Positions 3,603-38,049 of a stretch of DNA of 64,000 nucleotides are shown piece by piece (within the stretch, counting starts at the first letter, position 1; each line of letters starts with the position of its first letter). The notes below the pieces were generated by a model. The model was not told the origin of the DNA, made no database searches, and saw only the letters and a list, made by a program, of their open reading frames with translations. Where the stretch lies: positions 7,090 through 71,089 of the forward strand of contig CANRGJ010000013.1 of NCBI GenBank assembly GCA_947630175.1, in the 5' to 3' direction. The position numbers were made by a program, and so were the translations under genes. Source of the DNA: an uncultured Ruminiclostridium sp. GTDB lineage: Bacteria > Bacillota > Clostridia > Oscillospirales > Ruminococcaceae.

Positions 3603-3615
3603 GAGAATAGAACAT

Positions 3616-3648
3616 ATCCGAGGCGGTATTTCCGCCTCGGATTTTTTT
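3616..3648 (+). terminator. Intrinsic terminator
   Basis: ATCCGAGGCGG-N5-CCGCCTCGGAT plus T-run. Confidence 0.85.
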
Positions 3649-3832
3649 ATTTTAAGGACTTTATGAAAATATTGTTTTATATCCCCTTACTTTTTTAGGC
3701 AATAGCATTGACTTTAATTCAGTATTAGTGTATAATTGTATAATAAAACCCAAAATTGGAAAATTTTGGTAAAATCCCCCAGATCACTTTTTTGTATGTG
3801 ACAAAAGACTTTAAAAAACAGGAGGAAAAACA

Positions 3833-6800: not shown

Positions 6801-9800
6801 GTGAGGACGGCACAGGCGACAGGGCAGACCCCGACAAGGGTCTTCAGATAGATAACGTAAAGCTGAACACCCTTTATTCCTTTAACGGAATATACAGCGA
6901 CGAGGGCGACGGCGGCGCAAATATCCTGCGCAGAGACTGGAAAATAGTCTGGAAGGACTGGACGGGCGACGTCAACCGTGACGGCGTCATCTCCAAGGAA
7001 GAACAGGCAAGCCTTGGCAGCTACGGCGACAAGATAGACCGTACCGCCATTTCGGGCAACACCTTCCAGTTCGTTCCCATTTTCTCAAATTCCCAGATAT
7101 ATTATTCCTTTGTAAAGCGTGACCCCGCGCCCGACGACGGACGTATACTCACCGTAAAGGGTTGCGTTTTCCTCCAGAAAGGAACAGTCCTCAACAATCT
7201 TGATTCCCGCGGACTTATCACCAGTTCAGTCCCCGTGGAGGGAGCCACGGTAACCGTTGACGGAATGAGCACAACCACCGATAAGAACGGCAACTTCAGT
7301 TTCTCAAGCCAGTATTTCCGCAGCGGTGAAAACTATCTTGCAACGATCAGCTATCAGGGACTGACTTACAGCGTTGTTATACAGGTCAACGCATTCAAGA
7401 ATATTTTCCTTGAAGAGTTCAAGTTCTTCACTCCCTTTGAGCTTAAGGGATACGTTAAGAGTGGCGACAGCTTCAGCGCCATGGATCTTAACAATCCCAT
7501 ATTCCCCGACAATGCGGACAGCATTCAGAAATGGACCTTCAAGCTCTCGGAAAATGTGGCGAATATCTCGGCGGAAACAGTCAAGCTCAATCTTTACGAT
7601 ACAGAGAAAAACCTTCTGACGTCTGTACCCGCCAAGTTCGACGCTTCAAACTTCACCTGGTCGGCAGAGTTCAATCCCGCCAACTACGAGGGCACTGATT
7701 CAGGCACAGCCCGCGTACTGCCCGCAGGCTCAACTATGACCATTTCCGTTGTAGGCAGTGACGGCGTAACATACCCCGAATTTGAAGTAGGCGTAGTTTA
7801 TAAGAAAGCAATATCTACAATAACAGTCTTGAATACTTTCCAGACTCCCGCAAGTGAGCTTATCAACTTCATAGGCACCCTTGACGCAAAGTTCAATCTG
7901 GGAATGTCCGCAACAGTGGACAAGGAGCTTAAGGATAGAGCCGAAGTAAGCGGCGACAGAGTTCTCATTTCATTCGGTATCAACAAGGAATTTGAAGGAC
8001 AGTTCAACGACACCGAGGAAGAGGACGACAAGGGCGGCAAGGACAGCAAGCCCAAAACGGATTCGAAGAAAGCCGATCCTTCAAAGCCTGCTCAGCAAAC
8101 CAAAAATTCCAACGTTCTGGATTATCTTAAAGAAATAGCCAAGGGTGAGCTTACCGAGGGCGCTGACCCTAAAAAGGCGCAGGAGGCAGTGTCAAATGCG
8201 ATCAAAGGCACCACCTCCAAGACCAGCGGCAGCGTTATGGAAGGCTACCAGCTTGATATGGGAATCGGTCTTTACCTCTCCCTGAGAATAGACAAGGCCA
8301 CGGGAGATCTGTATTTTGACGGACTTATCGTTGCCGCCGCAATGCTGGGAGACGTGGGCTATAAGTTCTCAATGGCAACTCCCATAGGCGTAACGCTTGT
8401 AGCAGGACTTGACTTTGGCGGAAACATCACAGGTCTTGTGGCGGTAGAGCCTCACAACTTCGCAAAGATAAAGTTTGACGGAGAAGGCTCTATCGACGTT
8501 ACCAAGGCGGGAGATTTATCGAGTGGTCTTGACGTTTTCGGCAAGCTGTTCGTTTCGCCTTACATCGTGATAAGCGCAGGCGTTGAGGCAAGCACACAGG
8601 GCTTTTCCGCCGCAAGCATAACGGTAAGCGGCAAGGCGCTGTTCGATATGGCATTCTCCAGTGCGGGAAGCGGCAAGGGCAGCGTTACAATGAGCTGCGA
8701 GCTTGCTCTTAACGTGCTCGGCATTTTCAGCAAGTCCTGGACAATTGCACAGGGAACATGGCAGCTGTTCGACTATAATCCTCGTATGCTCAGGGGAGAA
8801 TTTGAAGGCGACTTACGCTTTGACACGGTAACTTCTGACGACACTATGGATCATTCCTATCTTGATAACAGAACGGAATGGGACGGCGTGGGCAGTAAGG
8901 ACACCTCCGAGGGAGGACTGCTGGGCTCCACCAACGGACTGAGCCGTGAGGAAACTCTCATAGAGGGCATTTATCCATACGCAAATCCTCTGATAATGTC
9001 TATCGGCGATAAAGACGAAGACGGCCTTGAGGAACAGATAATGGTATTCCTCGACACCGATACCACCGACAAGAATACTCAGAACAGCACGAGAATTTAT
9101 TACTCCATATTTGACAATCATGAATGGAGCCAGCCCCAGGAGGTTGACGCCCCTGACGACAGACTTCACGACGATTCTCCCAACATAGCCGACCTGGACG
9201 ACAGGATACTGGTTGTCTGGACCAGCGCAGAATCTGCCGTAACAGACGATACGAACCCCGTAGACGTTATGAACAACCGCAACATCAAGGGACGCTTCTT
9301 CTTCAAGGACACCCGCACATGGAGCGATATAACCGATATCACGGTAAGCACCGACGAGGACACTGCGGGCGACGACCGTCCCACTATCAGATACTGCAAG
9401 GACGATGAAGGCAACAGATACCTCGTGCTCACTTACGTCAAATCCGTACACACCGCAACGGGCGCTAACGGCGAAGACGTTCTGGTAGGCGATATCCTTG
9501 ACCCCAAGTCGGAGCTTGCTTACAGATTCTATGATTTCAAGACAGAATCCTGGGTATCCGAATACGACGACGCCACTATGCAGAAGCTTACTGCAAGCCT
9601 TGGCTCTGCAAAGGCGGCGGAAGAATTTGAAGATAACTGGTATGGACAGAATTTCGTAGACCTTACTTCAAGCGACGATATAGCGCAATCCGACCCCGTA
9701 GTTACCGACAACGGCGGAACGGGCTTTACGGACAGGAACGGTCATGCGATAGACGCAGGCGCATACATCGTTGATATGGACGGAGATAAATCAACCGTTG

Positions 9801-21963: not shown

Positions 21964-22998
21964 TTACCCGTAAATAAACGCCGAGTTAAGATACCCCACC
22001 AGACCGTTATAGGCGGCTTTTGTCCAGGTAATGCCGTCCTTGTCAGCCTTTTGGTTCAGTATCACCAGCGAAACGCCTGCGGGGAGCGTTGTGAGCAGCT
22101 TGCCGTTTATGCCTGCTGTTTCTCTCAGGTTCACCACGGCGGCGGTCTTTTTTATCTTGCCGTCGGTCTTTTTGAACACGCTGCCCTTGTCCACCCAGCC
22201 GTACACGTCGGAGCTTTCTCCTATCAGATGATAGGGGTGAAGTGCGTCCTTTGAAATATTCGTTATCTTTGCGATACCCGCTTTTCTGGGAAGTCCCGTG
22301 GGCTCCGTGGAGGAGGAAGCGCCGTAGTGCCAGCCGCCGCTGAACAGCACGCTCTCTCCCTTTTCAAAATCGGTCTTGTCCCCCTCGGACGGCTCTTCAG
22401 CGTCTATCAGGGCGGGATAATCCACAAAGCAAAGGTCGCTGTCCAGCTTGCCGTTCGAGCCTGCGCTGGATTCAGCGCCCCACTGCCACATCTTCTGACC
22501 GTAGCTGTACTTGGTGTACTTTTCAGGATCGTACGTCCAGTGCGCCAGCCAAAGGTCAAAGCTGTCCAGTATCTTTTTCTTGTCCAGCTTTGTTTCCAGC
22601 CACGATGGATTGGAATACAGCCCCGCACGGTAGCCCGCCGATTTTACCGTTTCAAGGAACGTGAGGGCTATCTCGGTGAGCTTTTCACGGCTCAGCTCCC
22701 ACAAGGTGCTGTCCTCCATATCGTAGTAAACGGGGTAGGTCAGCTTGTAGGGCTGGAGCAGCTTCACGGCGTATTCCGCCTCTTTCCTCGCCTCCTCAGT
22801 GGTCTTTGACATACAGTAGCAGTAAGCGCCCACGTTAAGTCCCGCCGCAAGAGCGTTTTCCATATGGCTTTTGAACATATCGTCGGTCTTCTGGCGGTAG
22901 CCTGTACGAATAATGACGTAGCTTATCCCCGACTCTTTCAACTTCCTGAAATCTATCCCTTTATTGGCATAGGAAATATCTATACCTCTGAAAGTCAT
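21964..22998 (-). CDS. GH25 lysozyme/muramidase with C-terminal SH3b-like wall-binding domain
   Basis: GIDISY, IIRTGY, GAYCY, VYYDME, WLAHW, WQW, LDSD; C-terminal VNLRETAG...TWTKAAYNGLVGYL. Confidence 0.9.
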   Translation of the reverse strand: MTFRGIDISYANKGIDFRKLKESGISYVIIRTGYRQKTDDMFKSHMENALAAGLNVGAYCYCMSKTTEEARKEAEYAVKLLQPYKLTYPVYYDMEDSTLWELSREKLTEIALTFLETVKSAGYRAGLYSNPSWLETKLDKKKILDSFDLWLAHWTYDPEKYTKYSYGQKMWQWGAESSAGSNGKLDSDLCFVDYPALIDAEEPSEGDKTDFEKGESVLFSGGWHYGASSSTEPTGLPRKAGIAKITNISKDALHPYHLIGESSDVYGWVDKGSVFKKTDGKIKKTAAVVNLRETAGINGKLLTTLPAGVSLVILNQKADKDGITWTKAAYNGLVGYLNSAFIYG

Positions 22999-23033
22999 GA
23001 CAGATGATCTCCTTTCCTTACGGGAAAAGCATT

Positions 23034-23429
23034 TCAGTGCTTCTCCTTATTTTTTATCTGCGCAAGTGCGTCCTTTAGCTTCTGCGGCACGGGCAGTCCC
23101 ATTTCCGTCGAATTTTCGGTTATGCTCAGCGCCTCGTTGGCGATAAAGGCGAAGATGACGGCTGTCCTGAGCGCAGAGCCTCCGATCACCTGTGTATCTA
23201 TTATATTCGCCACCGCCACAAGTGTGAAAAGCATAACCTTTTTGCAGATACCCTTAAATCCCACCTCGCTGGACATTGTTCCATTCACCGCCGCCGCCAG
23301 CATACCGGTGATGTAATCCAGCAGAGCAATAGCTATCAGCGCGGTCAGCAGTCCGTTCAGCTCCCCGAACAAAAAGCTGAACAGCGCTCCCACAGACGCG
23401 CAGATACAGTTGAACGTAACGGATTTCAT
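23034..23429 (-). CDS. Phage holin family 4 (toxin secretion/phage lysis holin)
   Basis: LDYITG, SSEVGFKGICKK, ANEALSITEN, GLPVPQKLKDAL. Confidence 0.92.
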   Translation of the reverse strand: MKSVTFNCICASVGALFSFLFGELNGLLTALIAIALLDYITGMLAAAVNGTMSSEVGFKGICKKVMLFTLVAVANIIDTQVIGGSALRTAVIFAFIANEALSITENSTEMGLPVPQKLKDALAQIKNKEKH

Positions 23430-23568: not shown

Positions 23569-23726
23569 AAAGGGAAGATGTGCGCGTCAGGGGCGGCGAA
23601 GCCGCAGTCAATGCGCCCCAGGCGCATTGACTCGCTGATTTTGCTCCGCAAAATCAGCGCTTTGCTTCGGGCTCCGCCCGAAGCAAAGGCGGCTTCGCCG
23701 CCCCCCGACCCGCACATCTTCCCTTT
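23569..23726. repeat. Cloverleaf-like palindromic element (outer stem + three inner hairpins)
   Basis: AAAGGGAAGATGTGCG..GGGGCGGCGAAGCCGC pairs with GCGGCTTCGCCGCCCC..CGCACATCTTCCCTTT; inner AGTCAATGCGCC/GGCGCATTGACT, CGCTGATTTTGC/GCAAAATCAGCG, CTTTGCTTCGGG/CCCGAAGCAAAG. Confidence 0.8.
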
Positions 23727-23794: not shown

Positions 23795-23823
23795 TTGAAA
23801 ATTCCCCCGTCATATGCTATACT
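23795..23823 (+). promoter_or_regulatory. SigA-type promoter of vanRS
   Basis: TTGAAA-17-TATACT with TG extension. Confidence 0.6.
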
Positions 23824-23852: not shown

Positions 23853-24533
23853 ATGAATATCCTGATAGCCGACGATGAAAAAGAGATAGCCGACCTTGCG
23901 GAGCTGTACCTGCAAGGCGAGGGATATAATATTTTCAAATTCTACAATGGGCTGGACGCTCTGGAATGCATACAGCACGAGGAAATAAGCCTTGCCGTTC
24001 TGGACGTTATGATGCCCGGAATGGACGGCTTCGAGCTTTGCCGCAGGATAAGGGAAAGCTACGTCTTCCCCGTGATAATGCTCACCGCAAGGGTGGAGGA
24101 TATGGACAAGATAAAAGGTCTCACCCTCGGCGCAGACGATTACATCACCAAGCCCTTCAATCCTCTTGAGCTTGCGGCAAGGGTCAAGACCCAGCTGCGC
24201 CGCTACACCCGCTACGACAGAGTGGGAGCAAACGGCGAGGAAATCGACATACGGGGGCTTCACATCTCAAAGACCAACCACAAGTGCAGTCTTAACGGCA
24301 AAGAGGTCCAATTAACCCCCATAGAGTTCAGCATTCTGTGGTATCTCAGCTCACGTCAGGGGCAGGTGGTGTCCTCCGAGGAGCTGTTCGAGGCTGTCTG
24401 GGGCGAAAAGTACCTTGACAGCAACAACACCGTTATGGCGCATATAGCAAGACTGCGTGAAAAGCTGGGCGAGCCCGCCCGCAAGCCCAGGTTCATCAAA
24501 ACAGTGTGGGGAGTGGGATATACCGTTGAATAA
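23853..24533 (+). CDS. vanR: OmpR-family response regulator, VanR-like
   Basis: LDVMMPGMDG, GADDYITKPFNPLEL, NNTVMAHIARLREK, IKTVWGVGY; van cluster context. Confidence 0.85.
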   Translation: MNILIADDEKEIADLAELYLQGEGYNIFKFYNGLDALECIQHEEISLAVLDVMMPGMDGFELCRRIRESYVFPVIMLTARVEDMDKIKGLTLGADDYITKPFNPLELAARVKTQLRRYTRYDRVGANGEEIDIRGLHISKTNHKCSLNGKEVQLTPIEFSILWYLSSRQGQVVSSEELFEAVWGEKYLDSNNTVMAHIARLREKLGEPARKPRFIKTVWGVGYTVE

Positions 24534-25881
24534 AATTTCCGAATGTGTAAAAAGCCGTGATTTCTGGAAAAAGTTTCTTAAAGGTATGTGCATATATACC
24601 GTCGTATTTGTGGCGGTCATCGTGGTGGGACTTGCCGTCTGCCAGGAGATAGTTTGGTACAAAGGCGATTTGTTCTACGACTTTTTCTCACTGATAAGGG
24701 GCATTCTTCTCCTCGTTTTGATAGGAGTATGGCTGGTGGGAGCAGGTATCCTCTTCCTTGTTATGGCGCTGTATAAGGGCAAAAACAAAACGGTGAGCCA
24801 CATTGTACAGCGTTTCAGACAGCGTACTCTGTCCAATTACTTTATAACGCTTGTGCTGTACACGGCAGGACTTATATCTTTAGTCATAGTGTCCAGAGTT
24901 GTCATTGTGGGGATAAACTGGAACACATACAGCCTGCTATACCGTTTGTTTTTATTTGCGGAAAGACATATTGAAGGAATTTTCCTTATTGCGTGGCTGT
25001 TGGGATTTATTATAATTTCTGTCCGCCTTGTTTACCGCCTTACAGGTTATCTTGGCAAGACTGCGGAGGCGACCAAGGGGCTCCTTTCCGACCCTGCAAA
25101 GCCCGTTACCCTCCCCGACGGGATAAAGGGACTTCAGGACGACATAAACGGCGTGAGAGAGCGTTTTCTTGAAAGCGCCCGCCTTGCCAAGGAGGCGGAG
25201 CAAAGGAAAAACGACCTTATAGTTTACCTCGCCCACGACCTTAAGACACCGCTTACCAGCGTTATCGGCTATTTAACGCTGTTAAAAGACGAGCCTGACA
25301 TTTCCCCCGCAACAAGGGCAAAGTACACAGGCATAGCCTTAGACAAGGCTATGCGCCTTGAGGAGCTGATAAACGAGTTCTTTGACGTCACCCGCTTCAA
25401 CCTCACCGCAATGACCCTGCAAAAGGAGAGGATAAGCCTTTCCCGTATGCTGGAGCAGCTCGTGGACGAATTTACCCCGGTGTTGGCTCAGCAGTCCCTT
25501 TCCTGGGACGCAGATATAGAAAGCGATATCCAGCTTTTCTGCGACCCTGACAAGCTGGAGCGCGTGTTTGACAACCTGATAAGAAACGCGGCAAATTACA
25601 GCTACAAGAACACGAAAATTTCCCTTACCTTGAAAAATGACCAGAACAAAGCCGTGATAACGGTGAAAAATCACGGTCAGACGATACCGCCCGAAAAGCT
25701 GGAAAAGATATTTCAGCAGTTTTTCCGCATAGACTCCGCCAGAAGCACCTCGACAGGCGGCGCAGGGCTGGGACTTGCCATAGCAAAGGAGATAGTCGAC
25801 CTTCACGGCGGGAAGATATTTGCCGAAAGCGTAAACGAGAGCATTTTCTTTACCGTTATCCTGCCGCTGGAAATAATGTAA
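24526..25881 (+). CDS. vanS: Sensor histidine kinase, VanS-like, with enlarged (4-TM) N-terminus
   Basis: YLAHDLKTPLTS H-box, RVFDNLIRNA, FFRIDSARSTSTGGAGLGLAI; TTG at 24526 overlaps vanR end. Confidence 0.85.
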   Translation: MNKISECVKSRDFWKKFLKGMCIYTVVFVAVIVVGLAVCQEIVWYKGDLFYDFFSLIRGILLLVLIGVWLVGAGILFLVMALYKGKNKTVSHIVQRFRQRTLSNYFITLVLYTAGLISLVIVSRVVIVGINWNTYSLLYRLFLFAERHIEGIFLIAWLLGFIIISVRLVYRLTGYLGKTAEATKGLLSDPAKPVTLPDGIKGLQDDINGVRERFLESARLAKEAEQRKNDLIVYLAHDLKTPLTSVIGYLTLLKDEPDISPATRAKYTGIALDKAMRLEELINEFFDVTRFNLTAMTLQKERISLSRMLEQLVDEFTPVLAQQSLSWDADIESDIQLFCDPDKLERVFDNLIRNAANYSYKNTKISLTLKNDQNKAVITVKNHGQTIPPEKLEKIFQQFFRIDSARSTSTGGAGLGLAIAKEIVDLHGGKIFAESVNESIFFTVILPLEIM

Positions 25882-26007
25882 GAAAATCTTAATAATTCCC
25901 ACAGAAAAAAATAAGTTATTTTTTGGAAAAAACAAATAAAAAACCGACTTCGTTCAGCTAAAATTAAAAGCTGAACGAAGTTTTTCTTTTTGAAAGGAAT
26001 TTTTAAG

Positions 26008-26814
26008 ATGCAACGAAAACGACTGACCCAGCTTTTCCCCTTTCTTATCCCACTGAGAACAAAACAGCGGAAATTCTGTTATTTTCTGAAAATGCGGTTT
26101 GACAAAAACACATATTGCTCCGTAAAAAGCGGCTGTCCTCTGCCCTTTTCGGTATGCTCCCATCAAAGCTGTATTTATAATCATGACACAGGCTTTGATA
26201 TGATATACCAGGAGAACAAGGCGCACAATCTGCGCCTTGGGGCGGCGGCTCTGGATGGACTGCTTATCCGTCCCGGAGAAACCTTTTCCTACTCCCTCGC
26301 CGTCAAAGACGCAGACAAAAAGACCCCCTACAAGGACGGGCTTATTATGCGGGACGGAAAGCTCACCGCCGATTACGGCGGGGGAATGTGCCAGCTTGCC
26401 GACCTGCTGTTCTCGCTTTTTCTCGACTCGCCGCTGACTATCACCGAGCGCCACGGGCATAAGATAAAGGATTTTCCCGACCCTGACGGTGACTGCGTTT
26501 TAAAAGGCGGCGACGCCACCGTTTTTGAGGGTTGGCTGGATTTAAAAGTGCGAAACGACACAAATATGACCTTTCAGCTCACCTTTTCATTTCCCGACAA
26601 TGATATAAAAGGAACGCTTTTGTCCAATGAAAAGGACAAATATTTCTACAAAGCGGCAAACGGCAATGTGACGTTAAAGCAGGAGCAGGACGGACTTTAC
26701 GAGGAAGCTCAGGTAATCCGTGAAAAATATCTTGAAAACGTCCTTGAAAGCACTCAGCTTCTGTACGTCAACCGCTGTAAGATAAATTATGAGATAAAGG
26801 AAAGGACGGCGTGA
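26008..26814 (+). CDS. vanW: VanW family protein
   Basis: QENKAHNL, IRPGETFS, YGGGMCQLA, LTITERHGH, GWLDLKVRN; ATG 26008 after GAAAGGA. Confidence 0.88.
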   Translation: MQRKRLTQLFPFLIPLRTKQRKFCYFLKMRFDKNTYCSVKSGCPLPFSVCSHQSCIYNHDTGFDMIYQENKAHNLRLGAAALDGLLIRPGETFSYSLAVKDADKKTPYKDGLIMRDGKLTADYGGGMCQLADLLFSLFLDSPLTITERHGHKIKDFPDPDGDCVLKGGDATVFEGWLDLKVRNDTNMTFQLTFSFPDNDIKGTLLSNEKDKYFYKAANGNVTLKQEQDGLYEEAQVIREKYLENVLESTQLLYVNRCKINYEIKERTA

Positions 26815-27851
26815 AAATGATAAACATCGGCGTTATCTTTGGCGGAAATTCCTCCGAATACGGCGTTTCCCTGCAATCCGCCTGCGGGGTGATAAACGCC
26901 CTTGACAGCAAAAAATACAGCGTAAAGAAAATTTGGATAACGAGGGAGGGAAAATGGTACCTCTTTGAGGGCGGCACAAATCTTATCTCACAGGACAAAC
27001 GTCCCGAGGAGCTTTCCTTTCCCCTTATACTTTCCCAGAACAGCGGAGAGGGAATATTTGTACGAAAAAACGGAGAGATGATGAAGACAGAAATCGACCT
27101 GCTCTTTCCTGTACTTCACGGCAGGAACGGCGAGGACGGCACGGTGCAGGGCTTAGCTGAGCTGTCCCAAATACCCTATGCGGGCTGTAAGGTCCTTTCC
27201 TCCGCCCTTTGTATGGACAAATACCGAGCCCACAAAATCGTTGAAGTACAGGGGATAAACGTCCCAAAAAGCGTACTTGTTTCAAGCACAGACAGTTTTG
27301 ATGAAATAAGGGAAAAAGCCCTTTCCCTCGGCTTTCCCGTTTTCGTAAAGCCGCTGAGAGCAGGCTCCTCCTACGGCATCGGCAAGGCGTATGATGTGAA
27401 AAGCCTTGAAACAGCGGTAAAACAGGCATTTCTCTACGACGACAGCGCAGTTTTTGAGGAGAGCATAGAGGGGAACGAAGTTGGCTGCGCCGTTATCGGC
27501 AGAAACAGGCTTGTGACAGGAGAGCTTGATATGATAACCCTTGAGGGTGAGCTTTTCGATTACAACGAAAAATACCTTAACGCCGCCCAAAGGATAACCG
27601 TACCCGCAAATTTGTCGCCCCAAAAGTCCGCCGAAATAAAGGAAATTGCAAAGAAAATCTACACAGCTCTGGACTGCTCAGACTTTGCCAGAGTGGATAT
27701 GTTCCTTACGAAAAGCGGAGAAATTTACTTCAACGAGGTGAACACTATCCCCGGCTTCACGCCCCACAGCCGCTTTCCGAAAATGATGGAGGCGGCGGGA
27801 TATTCTATGACAGAAACGCTTGACCTTATCATAAAGGAGGCTTTGAAATGA
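26811..27851 (+). CDS. vanG: D-Ala-D-Ser-type ligase (VanG-like)
   Basis: FGGNSSEYGVS, PVLHGRNGEDG, GSSYG, LFDYNEKY omega loop, NEVNTIPGFTPHSRFP; vanW/XY/T neighbours. Confidence 0.8.
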   Translation: MKMINIGVIFGGNSSEYGVSLQSACGVINALDSKKYSVKKIWITREGKWYLFEGGTNLISQDKRPEELSFPLILSQNSGEGIFVRKNGEMMKTEIDLLFPVLHGRNGEDGTVQGLAELSQIPYAGCKVLSSALCMDKYRAHKIVEVQGINVPKSVLVSSTDSFDEIREKALSLGFPVFVKPLRAGSSYGIGKAYDVKSLETAVKQAFLYDDSAVFEESIEGNEVGCAVIGRNRLVTGELDMITLEGELFDYNEKYLNAAQRITVPANLSPQKSAEIKEIAKKIYTALDCSDFARVDMFLTKSGEIYFNEVNTIPGFTPHSRFPKMMEAAGYSMTETLDLIIKEALK

Positions 27852-28549
27852 TACTCACTGAAAATGACGTTTACTGCGGCGACCTTATCCTTGTGAACAA
27901 GGACCATATGTACCGCCGTGACGGTGAAACGCCTTTTGAAAGGGCAGGGAGCGAACTTCTCTCACAAAGGGCGGCAGCTGCGCTCAAATTACTTTTGAAA
28001 GCAACTGACAGCGAGAACGATATAACCGTCGTCAGCGGCTTTCGCAGTTATCAGGAACAGCGTGAGCTGTGGGAAAGCTCCCTCTCGGAAAACGGCAGGA
28101 AATTTACCGAACAGTACGTGGCGCGCCCCCTGCACAGTGAGCACCAGACGGGACTTGCGGTAGACGTGGGACTGAATATTGAGGATATAGACTTTATCCG
28201 CCCGTATTTTCCCGACGAGGGAAAGTGCAGAGCCTTCCGCCTTAACGCCCCAAAATTCGGCTTTATCCTCCGCTACCCTGCGGACAAGGAGCATATCACC
28301 CGCATATCCCACGAGCCATGGCATTTTCGTTACGTGGGCGTTCCCCACGCCGAAATTATGGAGCAAAACGGCCTCACGCTTGAGGAATACACCGAATTTT
28401 TGAAAGCATACAGCAAAAGTGAGCTTATCTTCGGCGATTTTGCGGTTTCGTACATTAAGGGGGAGCGCTTACCGCTGGAAATCCCCGACGCCTATTCCGT
28501 TTCAGGCAACAACGTTGACGGCTTCGTGCTTTCAAGGAGGACAAAGTGA
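27848..28549 (+). CDS. vanXY: M15 D,D-peptidase (VanXY-like)
   Basis: SGFRS..EQ, HSEHQTGLAVD, EPWHFRYVG, YSVSGNNVDGF tail. Confidence 0.8.
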   Translation: MILTENDVYCGDLILVNKDHMYRRDGETPFERAGSELLSQRAAAALKLLLKATDSENDITVVSGFRSYQEQRELWESSLSENGRKFTEQYVARPLHSEHQTGLAVDVGLNIEDIDFIRPYFPDEGKCRAFRLNAPKFGFILRYPADKEHITRISHEPWHFRYVGVPHAEIMEQNGLTLEEYTEFLKAYSKSELIFGDFAVSYIKGERLPLEIPDAYSVSGNNVDGFVLSRRTK

Positions 28550-29540
28550 AGGAGCAGGGCGGGCTCGACCTGTTCCGCATTGCGGCGGCTTTGCTGGTTA
28601 TAGCCATACACACCGTATCGCCGGAAAGCAGCGGGGGGGGGGGTACAGCTTCTTATTGACCCGCATACTGGCACGGCTTGCAGTGCCGTTTTTTCTTATG
28701 GTGACGGGGCATTTTGTCCTTTTCTTTCCGCCCGACAAGGTGAAAAAATATCTGAAAAGCTCGCTGAAAGCCTATCTCGCGGTAACGCTCCTGTATCTTC
28801 CCTTAAGCATTTACGGCGGATATTTCGAGGACTTCTCCCCCTATACTCCGCTGAAATTACTGCTGTTTGACGGCGTTTACTATCACCTCTGGTATTTTCC
28901 CGCCGTGATAATGGGGATACTTATAGTACGCTTTTTGCAAAAGCATTTTTCGCACAAATCAGCCCTTGCGATATGCGTATTCCTTTATTTTATCGGACTT
29001 TTGGGCGACAGCTATTACGGCTTTGCCGCCGAAAATCCTGCAATATCGACCGCATACGATATCATCTTCTCCGTTTCAAGCTACACCCGCAACGGTATCT
29101 TTATGGCGCCGCTGTTTCTTCTGCTGGGAAATTCCGCCCCGAAAGCAAGCGTAAGCGAACAGCTTTCGCTGTACGGCTTCGGCGCTTCTTTCCTGCTGAT
29201 GACAGGGGAGGGAATGGCTTTGCATCTACTGCAAGTTCAGCGCCACGACAGTATGTACTTGTTTCTGCCCATTTGCACCTTTTTCCTTTACAGGCTCCTG
29301 CTTATTCCGAAAATAAAGCCTTTTCCCTGCCTGCGAAAGATATGCGGCACCGTCTACGTTATCCACCCTGCGGCAATTATTTTTATAAGAGGAATTTCAA
29401 AGCTGCTTGGCAAAGCTCCGCCTGACGGACTTTTAAACTTCGCCGCCGTCACCGTCATTTCATTTTTCGCCGCAATTTTACTGTATATCCTCCGCAGAAA
29501 AATTTTTGAAAAAAGACAAAACAAAAGCTCCGTGCCTTAA
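28546..29540 (+). pseudogene. vanT: VanT membrane domain only, frameshifted at G11 tract (pseudogene, phase-variable gene or sequencing error)
   Basis: GTG 28546 after AGGAGG gives GLDLFRIAAALLVIAIH then stop at 28657-28659; the other frame continues TRILARLAVPFF, YYHLWYFP, YTRNGIFMAP, RHDSMY; no racemase domain. Confidence 0.8.
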
Positions 29541-29557
29541 AGACACGGAGCTTTGTT
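29524..29557. terminator. Bidirectional terminator between vanT and protease gene
   Basis: AAAGCTCCGTG/CACGGAGCTTT stem with the vanT stop in the loop. Confidence 0.75.
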
Positions 29558-29586: not shown

Positions 29587-32500
29587 TTAATCTCTTTTCT
29601 TACGGAAGATGATAACGCCCATTGCTGCAATAGCCACAGCGGCTGTTGCTGCAATTCCTGCAAAGCTGTTGCCGGTAGCGGGGTTATCGTCGGTGAGGTC
29701 GACCATAACTGCGGTAACTGCGATGTTACCTGTTACAGCCTCGCCCTTGATCGTTACCTTGCCGGTAGCAGGGTCGTAGGTGTACTGAGTTGCGTCAAGA
29801 GCCTTGCCGTCAACAGTAACGGTAATGTTCTCAGGCAGCTTGTATCCGTCAGCAGGAGTAATGGTGAACGTAAGGTCTTCGCCCTTAGGAGCAGTAGCGG
29901 GAGCGTCAGAGGTTCCCTTGCCGCCAAGGTCTACGGATACGTCTACGTCTTCTGAAACGGGAGCCTGTGCTGCAGGAAGTTCAACTGTAACGTCTTCCGT
30001 TGCGGGAACTTCGTCGCTGGGCTTTCCGTCTTCGTTGTAGGTGAGGATTATGTTGGTCTTAAGACCGGATTCGTCCTCTTCCTCATAGGTGAATACCAGT
30101 TCAGCAACCTGCTTGTTAAGAGCGTCGGCAGCGGCGTAGTCAAATACCACGTTGCCAGCGGTCTTATCGTTGATGCTGAAGTAATCGGTATTGCCCTTAA
30201 CACTGTCAAGAGTGAGCGTCTCAGCGTCATATTCAACGTTGAACAGACCGTTGGTGCTGTTCATTGCGTCTACCTTGACGGTGATAGTGTTCTTTTCAGT
30301 GTCAACAACAACGTTTTCGCTTTCTGTATCAGGCTTTGTTTCGTCGTCGTTTACAACGATAGCGTTAGTGGAGCCTATCAGACCGGGAACTGCTTCGGGC
30401 TGTGCGGATTCGTTTGCACTTTCGTCAGCAATCGCGCTGATAACGTTCTCAGTGTCTATCGCCATCTTAGCGTCGCCTATAACAGCGTTGAGTCTGTCAG
30501 TGCGTGCGCCTGTCTCAGCAACAGTGTCGTCAACGTACTGATACAGTGAAACTGCGGAGCTTACGGTTGCGTCAAACGCAGACTTACCGGTGCTTATTAT
30601 CGTATTGCCGAACTCATCATACTCTACTTTGATGACAGCAACTGCGGGAGCGTCCATAGCACTTTCCGAATAGTAGGAAAGTACGAACTGATCTGCCGTA
30701 TCGGTGCTTCCGTCAAAGTCGTAGATCATTGAAGCAAAGTTGTTGCCGTCTGCAACGGAGCTGGAAACTCCTGACAGGTCAAGACCGCAGTTTCCGATGT
30801 ATCCGGTTCCTACACTGCCTTCAGATGTGATCATAAACAGGTACATATCGCCGTTTTCGCACAGGCATGTGTAGTAGTCAATACCCTGCGTGTTGTTCAC
30901 GCCGATCCATGCAATTGCGGCAATGTTAGAGCTGAAGTCAGAGCTTAAGTCAACAGGTCCGAACAAAGAGCCTGCGATAGGATCCATCAGCATGATAGCG
31001 GCAGTTCCTGCCTGAGGAGCAACCATAAGAGGACCATCGCCGTAGGCTATCTGCTCAAAGTAGTTGTTGGGAGCAGCGTCGGGGAACAGATAAACAGGAT
31101 TGATATCGAACAGCTTCGCATACTCAAATGTCGCAGCGTCTGTCAGATATACAGCGCCGCCGTCATGAGTGAAGAGGTAAGCTTCTTCCATATAATCGCC
31201 CCAAGCCATACCTGCTCTGTAATTAGGCATATCAGCATCGCTCAGCTTAGTGATAGCGGACAATTTGTCGCTGTTGAATTTGCTCCATGCGCCTTCGCCG
31301 TCAGCGTCGTTTACAAATCCTCTCAAAGGAACAGAAGGAAGTGATTCAACTGTTACCTTGATCTCGACCTTAACGGTGGGATCTGCGGCAGCAGCGGCTG
31401 TAACGGTAGTGGAGCCGGTAGAAACGGCCTTGATAAGACCGTTAATATCAACGGTTGCTACATTTTCGTCAGCAGAAGTCCATGTAACGTCACGGTTCTT
31501 CAGCGTCCAGGGAGCTACCGTTGCGGTAACGCGTACAGAACCGCCTTCCAGCATGGAAACTTCGGTCTGGCTTACGTTCAGGCTCTCTACCTCGGTGGCA
31601 GGAGTATCGTCGATCTCTACTCCTTCTTCGGAAGGAACAACATACAGTGATTTGCATACGCCTGCAATATTGGCTTCTGATTCATTTGCATAGTATGCTT
31701 CTTCATTTTCCAGGTCTATGATGAACAGAGAATTGAAGATCATGCTGAAACCGCCCCAAACAGGAGTAGAGTCACTAGCCATATACAGTATCTCGTTATC
31801 ATAGTCCCATGCAAGTCTGCCTACACCGCTTGGATATTCAGTTACAATGTTGAATGAATGCTGAATAGTGAGGAGCTCCTTGCCACTTGAATTATCCTTC
31901 GTCATTACGAATGCAGCGATATCCTCAGGGTCATCTTCGTTGATGCCTGACAGATAGAAGTTGCCGTCAGCGTCAATAGCAAGACCGCTGGGTGTGTAGA
32001 TCGTAGCAACTTCATCACCGATGAACAGATACGGGAAATATGCGAACTCAATATATCCGGTAAGAGGATTGATTACATATATGTAACCTGCGTCAGACAG
32101 AGCGTAAAGCTTGCCGTCTGCATAGTTGAACGCCATATCGATGATGGTTTCGCCTTCAAGCACGTCATTGTCCAGAGTAGCGATAGCGGTGAATACACCG
32201 GGATCTACCTGAGGAGCAACGTACAGAACGCCGTCATCGCCTACCTGGAACACATAATCGTCAGCGTAAGCGGCTGCGGTTATGTCAACAGGAGTTACGT
32301 CATACACATCTACGCCCATATCGTCCCATATGCTGACCGTATCGGGGTCAATGGTCAGCCAGGTGTTTGCGCCATACAGATCATCGAAGAAACCGAACAT
32401 TTCGCCGGAGAAGTCGATAGGATCGGTGCTGTATGTGAATTCTTCAGTCGTGGTGTTGAACGCGTAGTCGATAACTTCGATATTCACAGCCTGACGAACG

Positions 32501-35500
32501 CCTGCCTCAGCAAGCTCCTCAGCGGTGAATACAACAGTAACCTCTTCGTTTTCAGCCTTCTGGTCGGGAATTACCTGACCGTACAGGATAGCGCCGCTTC
32601 TGCTGATAAGGCTTACAGCAGCAACGTACTGGTTGTCCTTAACAGTTATGCGCAGGTCGCCTTCATTGTTTTTGCCCACGTTAGTGATAACGGGTGCGGT
32701 ATCGTCGATGTTGAGTCTGGTGGTCATGAATGCGCCGTCGCCAAGCTCGCCGTTTTCAACAAGCTCAGTGATCTGATCTGCTGTAAGATCACGTCCGTAA
32801 TATTCGGGTACTGCTACCAGACTTACGTTAATTGCGTCGCCTTCCTTGACGCCCAGCTCCTTAACAGCAACGTTGACGTTGAACTTGCCTCTTGTATACT
32901 GCCATGTGCCGTTGCCGTCATAATAGTATGCGGGGGTAACGTCATATGCGGGAGAAACTATTTTCAGCACTTCGCCGGTTTCAGCGTCGGTTATTACCGT
33001 CGTCAGTTCGCCTGCATTGCGTATCAGCGTGTACATATAAGAGCCGATCTTGTCTGCGCTGTTGATAGCTACCCTATCAAAAGGATATACGCCGTTTTCG
33101 GTAATGAGGCCGGCATAGGGGTTGCCGCTGATGTAGAATTCATGTCCCATATCAGCGTCATAGAAGCTAAGTATGTTAGTGGCGGTGTTTCCGGTGTAAG
33201 GCAGATGTCCTTCACTCAGGTCATATGCGCCGCCATTTGAACCTTCACTCTCTTCGTCAATAGCAAAGTATCTGTCAAACATTGTAGCGTCAGACCAGTT
33301 GCCGTAGAAGCCGAGTATAGGAATGGAGTGAGAAACGTCCAGAACGCCTTCCTCAGTGGAAACAGCGTTGATGAACGTAAAGCCCTCTACGTAAGCGCCG
33401 TTTTCGTAGCATTCGTCAAGTATAGCCTTGGTATCGTCGGTAAGAGCGATATCAACAGTTACGTCGACGGATCCGCCTGCGGGAACGGTCACCAACGTTT
33501 TGAGCGCCGCAAGGATAAGATGAGCGTCGTAGGTGGTTATCTTTTCATCGCCGTCAACGTCGCCGGTAGCAAGATCAAGATCGTCACCGCTTACGTTTTT
33601 GGCTATGTAATCCAACAGCGCCTGAGCGTCCTTGCTGTTTGTAACGCCGTCCTTGTTCACGTCTGCGTCGATGTCCGCAAAGCCGCCTGTTTCAACACCG
33701 TCTACGGTGTAGGTGACGTCAGCGTCCAGCGATGTGGTCCAGCGATCCAGAAGTAAAGTGGGATCCTCCTCTGAATACATGAACAGATCCTGTGTGAACA
33801 TATCTGTACCCAGAATATAGGACTGGTCGTTGTCATAGAAATTGTTTATGCTGAATGAGAAGCTGTATTCACCTGTTCTATCAGGGTCGTCGCCAAGCTC
33901 AGCCTTTACCTTGCCGTCAGAAGCGGAAACGGGGTCAAGGGTGGAGCCTTCGTCCATAAGGATATAGGAGTGAGCCTGTGTTGCAGCGCCTACGTTTGCA
34001 AGACCTGCGCCCTGAACAAGTATAGAATACCAGCTGGAATAGTTGCCGTCAGAGTTGGTGTCTTCGCCAAAGCCTTCCGCAACGGGTTCGGCAGTTGACA
34101 TCAGCAGGCTCTGCATCAGCTGACGTTCGGTAAGACCGGTCTTTTCAGTAAGACCCTCTTCCCTTATGTACTGAGCCAGGACTGCAACCATACCTGCTAC
34201 CTGAGGAGCAGCCATAGAAGTACCACTCATATTTTCATATGAAGTACCGCCGGGGATAAGACCGTTTACGGAATAGATATTTCCGCCGGGAGCAGTTATC
34301 TCAGGCTTCATTTCCAGACTTCCGGGAACGCCCCATGAGCTGAAGTCGCTCATAGTGTAGAAAGTAACGTCTTCGGGAATAGCAGAATAAATTTCGTCGC
34401 CTACCGTCACTGTGCCGGTGTAATAAGTAACGCCGTCTTTTTCTGCCTTTGTTCCTGCGCTCTTGAAGATTTCGCCGTCAGCCTGTGAAACGAGAACAAC
34501 AGGAGCAGTTCCCTCATAATCGCTCAGGTCCATACTGATCATTTCGGACTGATTGTTTACGATAATAACGCCAATAGCGCCTGCCTCTACTGCTGCGTTT
34601 GCCTTTGCAGCGAAGCTGGAGGAACCGCGGGAGCACATTGCTATCTTGCCGGCTACCAGATCCTTGACTATATCAAAGTAATTGATATTGCTATCGGTAT
34701 CAATACCGATGTTATCGAGAAAGACATAATCATGATCGCCTGCAATGGTCTTAAAGGGCTCGTTGCTGTAACCGGTACTTTCAGTGTAGAATAATTTTTG
34801 GCCGTCAATGATAAATATATCGCCGGTAGCGCCCACGTTATCGATGGAAGCTACTGAAAGGGCGTTGGTAAAGGTTGAGGGATTGCCTACCATAGCCAGA
34901 TTTACGTCGTCGCCGTACAGATAGCCTTCATAACCGTTTTCAGCATTGTCCGCATATGTACCGGAGTTGCCTGCCGAAGCAGTAACAACTGCAGTGCAGT
35001 CTGCCAGCTTATCCAGTATATCCTGGTATATGTCGTCATGGCTGAAGCCGCATGAAGAACCGAGAGACAGGTTTATGCTGTCTGCACCCAGAATAATAGC
35101 GTCCTCGATAGCTGCCATATAGTCTGCGTCATATGCACCGCCGCCTGTACCGAACACCTTCATGGTGATGACCTGTGCGTCGGGGGCAACGCCCTGTGTA
35201 TTGACTGAATCGAGTGCGCTTACAAAGCCGCCCTTGCCGTCGGGGATATAACGGTTAGCAGCTGCGATACCTGTAACGTGAGAACCATGCTCACCCTGAC
35301 TGTCATTGTCATGAGTGATGTCATAGTTTGCGTCAACGTAGTTGTAAGCGAAAGGTACCTTGTCGCTGAGGTGGAGAGCTTCTGCATCAGCGTTGCCGTT
35401 TGCATAAATGTTGAGCTGTTCCAGAACCTCGGCAACGTCCTCCTGTGTAAGAGTATCTCCTGTGTAGCCGTCCTGCTCCAGAGCATACAGGTAAGCGTCC

Positions 35501-36153
35501 TCGTCAAAGGACTGGTGGTCGGAGTCGATACCTGTATCGATCACCGCAACAATGCTGCCTGCGCCTTTGTATCCGCTTTCGTAAGCAACGTTGCTGCCTA
35601 TCATCTGGGAGGACGTCATCATGTTGGGATCGTATTCATCAACGGTAGCCTTGGATGCTTCATACTTTGTTTCAAGGAATACGTCCTTAACGCCCTTGAT
35701 GTTTTTGATCTCTTCGATCTGTCCGTACTTGACGTTTGCTGAAATAATGTTTGCCGCAAGTGTCAGATTCCAAACAACGTCCAGATCCTTTCCACCGAGA
35801 ACTTTGTTTTCGATGGTCGTCTCGAGAGATTCCTGCTTTTCGCTCAGGCTTTCTCTGTAAGCGACAGCCTGTTCGTCAACGGCAATGGTGTCAAGGTCAT
35901 ATCCTGCGTCGATCGTGGATTTATCCCATAAAACTATGGATACACGAACGACCTGATCGTCAGGGATATCAACCTGATCATCGTCGCTGTTCTGAGCAGG
36001 AACTCTGAGGTTGGAAGTGAGACTGGACTGTGAAAGCTTCAGGCTTTCAAATGAGTCGTCGGCGGCACTTGCAGGGATAGCTACGCTTGTAACTGCCAGA
36101 GAAGCAGCCAAAAGTGCGGCTATCCAGCGCTTGAATGAATTGTGTTTACTCAT
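29587..36153 (-). CDS. Cell-wall-anchored S8 (subtilisin/lactocepin-like) serine protease, 2188 aa, with PA, dockerin-like, Ig-like, cohesin-like modules and sortase-type signal
   Basis: Triad VIDTGID / HGSHVTGIAA / GTSMAAP; PA domain KIAMCSRG; duplicated DVNKDG..DA / GDVDGD..DA; NPATG + TM + RKKRD. Confidence 0.9.
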   Translation of the reverse strand: MSKHNSFKRWIAALLAASLAVTSVAIPASAADDSFESLKLSQSSLTSNLRVPAQNSDDDQVDIPDDQVVRVSIVLWDKSTIDAGYDLDTIAVDEQAVAYRESLSEKQESLETTIENKVLGGKDLDVVWNLTLAANIISANVKYGQIEEIKNIKGVKDVFLETKYEASKATVDEYDPNMMTSSQMIGSNVAYESGYKGAGSIVAVIDTGIDSDHQSFDEDAYLYALEQDGYTGDTLTQEDVAEVLEQLNIYANGNADAEALHLSDKVPFAYNYVDANYDITHDNDSQGEHGSHVTGIAAANRYIPDGKGGFVSALDSVNTQGVAPDAQVITMKVFGTGGGAYDADYMAAIEDAIILGADSINLSLGSSCGFSHDDIYQDILDKLADCTAVVTASAGNSGTYADNAENGYEGYLYGDDVNLAMVGNPSTFTNALSVASIDNVGATGDIFIIDGQKLFYTESTGYSNEPFKTIAGDHDYVFLDNIGIDTDSNINYFDIVKDLVAGKIAMCSRGSSSFAAKANAAVEAGAIGVIIVNNQSEMISMDLSDYEGTAPVVLVSQADGEIFKSAGTKAEKDGVTYYTGTVTVGDEIYSAIPEDVTFYTMSDFSSWGVPGSLEMKPEITAPGGNIYSVNGLIPGGTSYENMSGTSMAAPQVAGMVAVLAQYIREEGLTEKTGLTERQLMQSLLMSTAEPVAEGFGEDTNSDGNYSSWYSILVQGAGLANVGAATQAHSYILMDEGSTLDPVSASDGKVKAELGDDPDRTGEYSFSFSINNFYDNDQSYILGTDMFTQDLFMYSEEDPTLLLDRWTTSLDADVTYTVDGVETGGFADIDADVNKDGVTNSKDAQALLDYIAKNVSGDDLDLATGDVDGDEKITTYDAHLILAALKTLVTVPAGGSVDVTVDIALTDDTKAILDECYENGAYVEGFTFINAVSTEEGVLDVSHSIPILGFYGNWSDATMFDRYFAIDEESEGSNGGAYDLSEGHLPYTGNTATNILSFYDADMGHEFYISGNPYAGLITENGVYPFDRVAINSADKIGSYMYTLIRNAGELTTVITDAETGEVLKIVSPAYDVTPAYYYDGNGTWQYTRGKFNVNVAVKELGVKEGDAINVSLVAVPEYYGRDLTADQITELVENGELGDGAFMTTRLNIDDTAPVITNVGKNNEGDLRITVKDNQYVAAVSLISRSGAILYGQVIPDQKAENEEVTVVFTAEELAEAGVRQAVNIEVIDYAFNTTTEEFTYSTDPIDFSGEMFGFFDDLYGANTWLTIDPDTVSIWDDMGVDVYDVTPVDITAAAYADDYVFQVGDDGVLYVAPQVDPGVFTAIATLDNDVLEGETIIDMAFNYADGKLYALSDAGYIYVINPLTGYIEFAYFPYLFIGDEVATIYTPSGLAIDADGNFYLSGINEDDPEDIAAFVMTKDNSSGKELLTIQHSFNIVTEYPSGVGRLAWDYDNEILYMASDSTPVWGGFSMIFNSLFIIDLENEEAYYANESEANIAGVCKSLYVVPSEEGVEIDDTPATEVESLNVSQTEVSMLEGGSVRVTATVAPWTLKNRDVTWTSADENVATVDINGLIKAVSTGSTTVTAAAAADPTVKVEIKVTVESLPSVPLRGFVNDADGEGAWSKFNSDKLSAITKLSDADMPNYRAGMAWGDYMEEAYLFTHDGGAVYLTDAATFEYAKLFDINPVYLFPDAAPNNYFEQIAYGDGPLMVAPQAGTAAIMLMDPIAGSLFGPVDLSSDFSSNIAAIAWIGVNNTQGIDYYTCLCENGDMYLFMITSEGSVGTGYIGNCGLDLSGVSSSVADGNNFASMIYDFDGSTDTADQFVLSYYSESAMDAPAVAVIKVEYDEFGNTIISTGKSAFDATVSSAVSLYQYVDDTVAETGARTDRLNAVIGDAKMAIDTENVISAIADESANESAQPEAVPGLIGSTNAIVVNDDETKPDTESENVVVDTEKNTITVKVDAMNSTNGLFNVEYDAETLTLDSVKGNTDYFSINDKTAGNVVFDYAAADALNKQVAELVFTYEEEDESGLKTNIILTYNEDGKPSDEVPATEDVTVELPAAQAPVSEDVDVSVDLGGKGTSDAPATAPKGEDLTFTITPADGYKLPENITVTVDGKALDATQYTYDPATGKVTIKGEAVTGNIAVTAVMVDLTDDNPATGNSFAGIAATAAVAIAAMGVIIFRKKRD

Positions 36154-37062: not shown

Positions 37063-37461
37063 CTATTCTTCCTCTTCCTCTATCCCACTCAGATCAAATT
37101 CCAGCGGCTCGCCGCAGTTAGGGCAGAGCATATCTCCCTGAGAGATAACGTCGAAGTCAACTACTACGCTGTTGCCGCACTTAGGACAGGTTATCTCATA
37201 CATATCCTCGTCCTCGCAGCCGCAGTCGCACCCGTCCTCGCCGAAAACGGCGTCCTCAAGGTCTGCAACGCTGTTGTCTATGTCGTTTACCGCGTCAGTG
37301 ATACCGTCAAGGTCAGTATCCACGTCCTCAAGCTGATATGCGATATCCTGAAGCACGTCCATTATCTGATACAGCACCTTTCCCTCAGGGGTTTCCGCGT
37401 CCAGCTTAAGACCCTCCGCAAGACCCTTTAAGAAAGCTACCTTTTCGGAAATATCCATCAT
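37063..37461 (-). CDS. CD1247-like acidic protein with C-terminal Zn-ribbon
   Basis: SEKVAFLKGLAEGL N-terminus; CPKC..CPNCG. Confidence 0.8.
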   Translation of the reverse strand: MMDISEKVAFLKGLAEGLKLDAETPEGKVLYQIMDVLQDIAYQLEDVDTDLDGITDAVNDIDNSVADLEDAVFGEDGCDCGCEDEDMYEITCPKCGNSVVVDFDVISQGDMLCPNCGEPLEFDLSGIEEEEE

Positions 37462-37485
37462 AGTCTGCTCCTTTCACATGAAAAA

Positions 37486-38049
37486 TTACTTGCTTGCGCG
37501 TTCCATATATTCGCCCGTTCTGGTGTCGATACGGATAACGTCGCCGATGTCGATGAACAGGGGAACTCTTATCTCAGCGCCGGTTTCCAGCGTTGCGGGC
37601 TTGGTGGCGTTGGTGGCGGTGTCGCCCTTGAAGCCGGGCTCGGTCTGAGTGACCTCAAGCTCAACAAAGTTGGGAGGCTCTACGCCGAATACGTTGCCCT
37701 TGTAGCTGAGTATCTTGCACACCATATTTTCCTTTACAAAGCGGAAGTTGTCGCCCAGGTCCTTCTTGTTGATAGGCACCTGCTCGTAGGTCTCGCTGTC
37801 CATAAAGTAGTATAAGTCGCCGTCGCTGTAAGTATACTCCATATCCTTCCTCTCGATGTAGGCGGTGGGGAACTTGGCGGTGGGGTTGTAGGATTTTTCA
37901 ACTACTGCGCCTGTGATGACGTTCTTGGTCTTGGTACGGACGAAAGCGGAGCCTTTTCCCGGCTTAACGTGCTGGAACTCGATGACCTGCACCACGTTGC
38001 CGTCCTCTTCAAAGGTAACGCCGTTTCTGAAATCGCCTGCTGTTATCAT
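37486..38049 (-). CDS. efp: Elongation factor P
   Basis: [42 protein letters not shown]. Confidence 0.97.

Follow-up and report, generated by a model that had tools for sequence, protein, structure and literature searches.

How might a glycopeptide-resistance operon of the VanG type obtain D-serine (D-Ser) when its vanT gene has no serine racemase domain? The question is raised by a 64,000-nt stretch of DNA from an uncultured Ruminiclostridium sp. (contig CANRGJ010000013.1, positions 7,090 to 71,089; hereafter the window), in which six co-oriented genes, vanR-vanS-vanW-ligase-vanXY-vanT, fill positions 23853-29540. A sequence-only reading had deduced this gene order, which HMM matches bear out across the whole interval, and had offered three options: a cryptic or decayed cluster, use of dietary or host D-Ser, or an unlinked racemase. 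The last of these fits best, as the sole alanine racemase (Alr) of the genome (2.7 Mb, 100% complete, 0.17% contaminated) carries a VanT-type Asn, whereas decay does not hold as the cause of the missing racemase. Below, G-numbers designate genomes (the window genome being G000) and L-numbers designate compared loci or assemblies, L004 lying in G005 and L003 in G041/G259.

A vanT gene reduced to its membrane domain

The vanT gene starts at a GTG (28546) directly behind an AAGGAGG ribosome-binding site. Its 5' piece (28546-28659, plus strand) runs for 37 codons to a stop, and its main frame (28644-29540, plus strand, 298 codons) encodes an Acyl_transf_3 (PF01757) membrane domain without a racemase domain. 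The gene is split by a run of 11 G residues (G11), which explains why it had to be frame-corrected in the sequence-only reading; with nine residues (G9) instead, the product would be 330 aa long. The match to the VanT-CELN model is restricted to positions 33-335 of 697, and that to the VanT-L membrane-subunit model covers positions 37-327 of 329. Thus, since the match stops with the membrane half of the VanT model, the short vanT ends at the domain boundary, as had been proposed. The TAA stop (29538-29540) sits inside the loop of a 14-bp hairpin (29524-29554), the terminator within which it had been placed from the sequence; this hairpin has a good T-run when read on the minus strand but a weak one on the plus strand. 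No separate racemase gene follows vanT, as there are only 46 bp between its stop and the end of a convergent gene encoding a 2188-aa S8 protease.

Membrane-only vanT genes are present in at least six species of the genus. The arrangement ligase-vanXY-short vanT (324-354 aa), followed by unrelated genes, is found in L004 (G005), L003 (G041/G259), G001, G008, and G020. The L004 gene is an intact open reading frame (ORF) of 330 aa with 94% amino-acid identity to that of the window, the L003 gene encodes 324 aa (81% identity), and the genes of G001, G008, and G020 encode 347-354 aa. Full-length VanT was not found in any genome of the genus surveyed. When 25 homologous loci are read as stop-to-stop frames, L003, L004, and L016 are short, and the other 22 encode full-length VanT proteins of about 700-830 aa (37-46% identity). 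Membrane-only relatives are common, as approximately half of the best 150 matches in 1.84 billion representative proteins are 320-390 aa long.

The short vanT is under purifying selection, with dN/dS values (Nei-Gojobori method, window operon genes against L004 and L003) of 0.18-0.32, and values for vanR, vanS, vanW, the ligase gene, and vanXY range from 0.01 to 0.29. A one-off truncation or an assembly break is ruled out by the occurrence of the same gene end in at least six species and in two independent assemblies of the strain, both of which contain the short vanT and not a full-length one. We regard it as nearly certain that the racemase-less architecture is real and conserved. Given that membrane-only vanT has been kept under purifying selection in at least six species, together with intact partner genes, the missing racemase appears to be a feature of the lineage and not a product of decay. 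Only for the G11 frameshift of the window strain do decay or switching-off come into question.

Two further observations concern the short vanT and its relatives. A second Acyl_transf_3 protein that resembles the VanT membrane domain and stands alone (322 aa, 182 bits against the VanT model) is encoded on contig C3 of the same genome (60840-61808, minus strand), where its gene adjoins those for a putative anti-sigma protein of 804 aa and a sigma factor of the ECF type. This paralog, also present in G005, suggests that the VanT-membrane-like family has envelope-stress roles outside van operons. In addition, divergence between the window and L003 (positions 3213-8873) is mosaic: from vanR to the ligase gene, dS exceeds 1 and amino-acid identity is 57-80%, and for vanXY and the short vanT, dS is 0.33-0.44 and identity 82-88%. 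As divergence differs across the ligase/vanXY junction, a recombination event near this junction is suggested.

The sole alanine racemase carries the VanT-type Asn

Where could serine racemase activity come from in this genome? Its sole Alr-family gene lies on contig C8 (33013-34146, minus strand) and encodes a protein of 377 aa without a membrane domain; a YggS-like protein is also encoded. A second Alr-like racemase, for which a genome search had been suggested, was not found with either the Pfam Ala_racemase_N model or tblastn searches using eight VanT racemase domains, and the latter match the C8 gene only, at 31-35% identity. A separate vanTr elsewhere in the genome is thus ruled out by these searches.

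We compared substrate-pocket residues at positions 543, 567, 695, and 696, numbered as in VanT_G through alignment to 4ECL, position 696 being Tyr354 of Bacillus Alr. VanT racemase domains have Tyr-Ser-Thr/Ser-Asn at these positions, and the Alr proteins of relatives have Gly/Ala-Pro-Gly/Asn/Pro/His-Tyr. The C8 enzyme has Gly-Pro-Ser-Asn and its counterparts in G001 and G008 have Gly-Ala-Thr-Asn, so that all three carry the VanT signature, namely Asn696 preceded by Thr or Ser. The corresponding motif is GTISNEV in the C8 enzyme and GTITNEV in G001 and G008, as opposed to GTINYEV in solved Alr structures. Published mutants show what this change can do. In VanTG, the N696Y mutation lowers L-serine (L-Ser) conversion 30-fold, making Asn696 the key determinant of serine use, and a VanT T695S mutant behaves like the wild type (PMC4542195). 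Conversely, the Y354N mutation in Bacillus stearothermophilus Alr, engineered as a model of an intermediate in the evolution from alanine racemase to VanT, is described as raising serine racemase activity 62-fold while leaving alanine activity unchanged (Patrick et al. 2002, as cited in PMC4542195).

In maximum-likelihood trees, the Asn-type Alr proteins, hereafter Alr(N), are nested, on a long stem branch (0.56-0.58), in the housekeeping Alr clade of the genus (100/100), and are widely separated from the VanT racemase clade (100/100). Moreover, a divergent alr/lytR-like gene pair is kept across the Asn and Tyr species of the genus. Tree and synteny together rule out that Alr(N) is a detached and relocated VanT racemase domain. 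On the same two grounds, the C8 gene is the positional ortholog of the housekeeping alr, and its product has converged on the VanT pocket. The protein scores 317.7 bits against the alr equivalog model (cut-off 168) and 287.5 bits against VanT-G-Cterm (cut-off 460). Because it passes the former cut-off and not the latter, NCBIfam would name it an alanine racemase.

Distribution of Asn-type racemases and racemase-less operons

Within the genus, the Asn residue is found in the Alr of G000, G005, G259/G041, G001, G008, and G150, and Tyr occupies this position in 24 other species, whose pair at positions 695 and 696 is Gly/Pro-Tyr. Five species combine Alr(N) with the operon and one has Alr(N) without it; none of the Tyr species has the operon (0 with, 24 without). 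The association is significant in a Fisher test (p = 4e-5), although species are not phylogenetically independent and this value overstates the evidence. G112 has a Tyr-type Alr, 76% identical to that of the window genome, and no operon, and its Alr branches beside or inside the Asn clade (91/95). If G112 truly belongs inside this clade, Tyr would have been regained where the operon is absent, but the topology does not force this interpretation.

More distant genomes show other solutions. 'Ca. Oscillibacter pullicola' (L016) possesses a vanRS-ligase-vanXY-short vanT operon and a Tyr-type Alr; a soluble VanT-clade racemase (motif TITNE) is encoded on a different contig. A mirror-image operon that lacks the membrane domain, vanRS-(W)-ligase-vanXY-soluble VanTr, occurs in several genomes of the same order (G386, G061, G040, G233, and G172), where a ligase 45-49% identical to that of the window is paired with an Asn-type VanT racemase. 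G040 keeps a Tyr-type Alr beside its dedicated VanT-type racemase. Thus, in the genomes examined for this (G040 and 'Ca. Oscillibacter pullicola'), the housekeeping Alr stays Tyr-type when a dedicated VanT-type racemase is available, and among the genomes examined Asn is seen in the housekeeping Alr where the operon has no racemase. Among the matches listed in our order-wide survey, which was confined to these matches and therefore under-samples membrane-only operons outside the genus, there is no independent second lineage combining a membrane-only operon with a sole Asn-type Alr. The only other membrane-only operon listed outside the genus is that of 'Ca. Oscillibacter pullicola', which uses a VanT-clade racemase instead.

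We also recorded, in G215, a genome of another family of the order, a locus (L127, contig C2, 56443-57543) that is the only racemase match of this 1.6-Mb genome. With 334 bits and a SISNE motif, this locus is VanT-like; no van genes were detected within 6 kb of it, nor was a VanG-like ligase detected in the G215 genome.

A VanG-like ligase

Does the operon encode a ligase suited to D-Ser? The ligase gene (26811-27851, plus strand) encodes a VanG-like, D-Ala:D-Ser-type ATP-grasp protein of 346 aa. The FDYNEKY and SRFP motifs noted in the sequence-only reading are both present, within ELFDYNEKY and HSRFP. The best NCBIfam model is VanG (448 bits, cut-off 495) and the second best is the generic D-Ala-D-Ser ligase (353 bits, cut-off 520); the D-Ala-D-Ala ligase subfamily model gives 350 bits, over its cut-off of 262. 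The closest PDB structure is VanG 4FU0 (332 bits), followed by VanA (253 bits) and DdlA (231 bits). Ligase residues D240, F249, and R321 align with the identical D243, F252, and R324 of VanG, which are said to set D-Ser selectivity. A housekeeping murF-ddl pair lies separately on contig C4 (ddl, C4:33704-34897), and the operon ligase does not group with the housekeeping Ddl; a D-Ala-D-Ala affiliation would have told against the sequence-only reading.

A third Ddl-family ligase (about 356 aa) is encoded on contig C1 (291772-292842), outside the window and any van cluster. Like the operon ligase, it matches VanG best among NCBIfam models (292.8 bits, below the cut-off), and it is devoid of the EKY omega-loop motif. 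G112 and G150 each have two non-van ligases as well.

A poly-G tract of variable length

Is the short vanT of the window strain broken or switched off? The G11 run (28633-28643, plus strand) occupies codons 30-33. Relatives have G9, two residues fewer, and the reading frame would be intact with either G9 or G12. Codons of the 5' piece align one to one with those at the N-terminal ends of the intact L004 and L003 ORFs. In seven assemblies, the tract ranges from G8 to G11. It is G11 and out of frame both in the window and in L178, an assembly of the same strain at about 3x coverage (99.97% identical, zero mismatches over 3720 bp). In a second species, it is G9 and in frame in L004, and G8 and out of frame in L144 (2.7x coverage). 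Similarly, in a third species, it is G9 and in frame in L003, and G10 and out of frame in L145 (20x coverage). Finally, L146, with 88% amino-acid identity, has an in-frame G9. No G tract is present in the more distant operons of G001, G008, and G020.

In-frame and out-of-frame alleles thus coexist within two species, and this length variation among assemblies makes the tract a candidate phase switch. We rate the chances that it is a phase switch, and not a fixed lesion or an error, as about even. The simplest reading is that slipped-strand variation has switched the window vanT off; this is the less certain part of our interpretation. No other G/C run in the 2.7-Mb genome is as long as the G11 tract, and four of the five other nine-base G/C runs lie inside long intact ORFs, which argues against a general homopolymer problem in the assembly; this candidate explanation is therefore unsupported. 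In L178, the short vanT exhibits an additional 1-bp deletion, which warns of low-coverage error.

Proposed mechanism and alternatives

We propose that the locus is a VanRS-controlled cell-wall remodelling operon of the VanG (D-Ala-D-Ser) type, in which 'vanT' would by design consist of the membrane half only, a putative L-Ser importer, and racemase activity would come from the single unlinked housekeeping Alr. In the clade, the pocket pair that separates VanT from alanine racemases has changed from Gly-Tyr to Ser/Thr-Asn. The membrane protein would import L-Ser, Alr(N) would make D-Ser for the ligase, and the ligase would use it. Supply of D-Ser in trans by the Asn-type housekeeping Alr is the best-supported mechanism and, in our view, probably the right one; this assessment draws on one clade, with one known exception, and on published mutagenesis of related enzymes. 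The full combination, in which a natural Tyr-to-Asn re-tuned housekeeping Alr doubles as the van serine racemase, the operon has shed its racemase domain, and the remaining vanT is under a poly-G on/off switch, is more tentative, and we place it slightly below an even chance.

Several points weigh against this proposal. Even in the literature, transport of serine by the VanT membrane domain is no more than a hypothesis. The C8 enzyme lacks the Tyr543 and Ser567 of VanT and keeps Alr-type residues at both positions. All operon genes but vanR score under curated NCBIfam cut-offs (ligase, vanXY, vanS, and vanW). The Asn species form one clade, so their association with the operon may rest on a single evolutionary event. 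Furthermore, Asn-type racemases exist without the operon: in G150, Alr(N) is present, yet the assembly (99% complete, 200 contigs) contains no VanG-like ligase and only a vanR fragment at a contig edge, and the sole racemase of G215 is N-type with no van genes nearby. Lastly, the poly-G lengths are those of assemblies, and two of these have about 3x coverage.

Do other explanations account better for the locus? If loss of the racemase domain had ended D-Ser supply, the cluster would be cryptic or decaying and G11 would be a further step of pseudogenization. The out-of-frame vanT of the window strain would agree with this scenario, as would the combination of the same G11 and another 1-bp deletion in its second assembly and the sub-threshold scores of most operon genes. 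However, the membrane-only form persists in at least six species with the dN/dS values given above and as intact ORFs in L004, L003, L146, G001, G008, and G020; the five other operon genes are all intact and constrained, and there is no racemase remnant downstream of vanT. Decay is thus improbable. Only marginally better is the chance that D-Ser is taken up from the gut lumen (from diet, host, or microbes), possibly by the short VanT, and that the Asn in Alr is unrelated. Although the operon retains a putative amino-acid importer, and G150 and G215 have Asn-type racemases with no van operon nearby, uptake leaves unexplained why five of the six Asn species, but not one of the 24 Tyr species, possess the operon, and why Tyr is kept in the Alr of the two genomes examined that encode a VanT racemase of their own (G040 and 'Ca. 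Oscillibacter pullicola'). No result obtained here demonstrates D-Ser import.

The other two explanations concern single components. The ligase might not make D-Ala-D-Ser at all, the operon being a VanRS-type envelope-stress module with another product and no need for a serine racemase. Its scores, under the VanG and generic D-Ala-D-Ser cut-offs and over the D-Ala-D-Ala one, could be taken this way, but VanG is the best model and, by a wide margin, the best structure, the three aligned VanG selectivity positions are identical, the housekeeping murF-ddl pair is separate, and sister operons from the same order pair a related ligase (45-49% identity) with an Asn-type VanT racemase. We consider this explanation highly improbable, the least probable of all. 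By contrast, a sequencing or assembly artefact in G11, with an intact gene in the living cell, is a real though minority possibility, roughly one that we would expect to prove wrong. Homopolymers are error-prone and L144 and L178 have low coverage; nevertheless, the same G11 was obtained in two assemblies that are otherwise 99.97% identical, an error of +2 is less usual than one of +/-1, the other G/C runs of at least nine bases with an evident coding frame lie in intact long ORFs, and the G10 of L145 was read at 20x coverage.

Other operon genes and surroundings

A promoter-like sequence, TTGAAA-17-TATACT with an extended -10 TG, is located 5' of vanR (23795-23823, plus strand) and was recognized by consensus match only. 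The remaining operon genes are all on the plus strand. The vanR gene (23853-24533) encodes a response regulator of 226 aa, which matches NCBIfam VanR-ABDEGLN (379 bits, cut-off 350) and Pfam Response_reg and Trans_reg_C. The vanS gene (24526-25881) encodes a histidine kinase of 451 aa, which is marginally under the HK_VanS cut-off (390.9 bits, cut-off 400) and matches Pfam HisKA and HATPase_c. Its TTG start (24526) agrees with the 451-aa gene call in L178, and the open frame extends back to 24457. The VanS N-terminal region (24526-25100) is long, with about 180 aa ahead of the VanS-model match. The vanW gene (26008-26814) encodes an accessory protein of 268 aa (NCBIfam vanW-gen, 342 bits, cut-off 365; Pfam VanW). 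The product of vanXY (27848-28549), a putative D,D-dipeptidase/carboxypeptidase of 233 aa, scores 222 bits against VanXY-G (cut-off 500) and 209 bits against generic vanXY (cut-off 250), matches Pfam VanY, and exhibits the metal-site motifs SEHQTGLAVD and EPWH.

Upstream of vanR, the operon is directly bordered by minus-strand genes (21964-23429) for a holin of phage type (PF05105) and a GH25-SH3 endolysin, which occupy the same position in L004 and L003. The interval from the holin gene to the vanR promoter region contains three overlapping tandem hairpins of 12-13 bp (23606-23688), which might act as terminators or constitute a repeat element. On the other side, the S8 protease gene (29587-36153, minus strand) is also found 3' of the operon in L004 and L178. 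It is absent from L003, where the operon runs directly into homologs of window positions 37063-38049; its presence or absence is an insertion/deletion polymorphism.

Implications and comparison with known systems

The operon is a variant of the VanG/VanL kind, of interest for the evolution of VanT, the role of the VanT membrane domain, and resistome calling. The Tyr354Asn Alr that had been proposed as the intermediate between alanine racemase and VanT seems to occur naturally, as a fixed trait of one clade that is coupled to a racemase-less van operon. Moreover, an operon that keeps the membrane half only offers a clean setting in which to address the role of this domain. Curated NCBIfam cut-offs and racemase-centred screening would miss the operon as a D-Ser van system. 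For example, a recent three-criterion scheme asks for a racemase with Asn696 that adjoins a transporter and a ligase (bioRxiv 10.64898/2026.10.22.760690) and, by our reading of its criteria, would discard both the C8 Alr and the window operon. That study describes split and racemase-only vanT but starts from racemase calls, and membrane-only operons are not described in it; in the literature searched, we found no description of membrane-only van operons. Should the system function as proposed, gut Clostridia contain more van systems of the D-Ser type than are currently counted, with a core gene outside the operon holding part of the resistance determinant. D-Ala-D-Ser resistance would then be distributed, in part across the chromosomal core, and invisible to racemase-centred resistome screens. 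Direct clinical weight is low, as the host is an uncultured-type gut commensal whose nearest genomes are metagenome-assembled genomes from rabbit gut.

How does the locus compare with systems already known? It shares VanRS control, vanW, a VanG-like ligase, a predicted bifunctional VanXY, a terminal vanT, and gene order with the vanG operon of Enterococcus faecalis BM4518 (vanURS-vanYWG-XY-T), but has neither vanU nor vanY, its vanT has the membrane domain only, and its racemase would be the housekeeping Alr encoded elsewhere. Poly-G contingency switches are found in surface genes of Neisseria, Haemophilus, and Campylobacter. As in those genes, a 5' coding G-run whose length sets the frame is found in the window vanT, and this length differs between assemblies; here, however, the tract lies in a resistance-type operon and the host is a gut anaerobe, and variation is known between assemblies only. 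In vanL (vanTm-L/vanTr-L) and in a split Erysipelotrichales lineage (bioRxiv 10.64898/2026.10.22.760690), the membrane half is, as here, a separate gene product of about 330 aa, but a dedicated vanTr adjoins vanTm, whereas the window genome has no vanTr anywhere. The mirror-image operons, with the same regulators, ligase, and vanXY, represent another way of uncoupling the two VanT halves: they keep the racemase without the membrane domain, and the window operon does the reverse. Finally, the C8 Alr resembles the engineered Tyr354Asn Alr of B. stearothermophilus in having Asn at the Tyr354 position of an alanine racemase backbone, but is a natural ortholog fixed in a clade, in which the neighbouring residue has also changed, to Ser or Thr, as in VanT.

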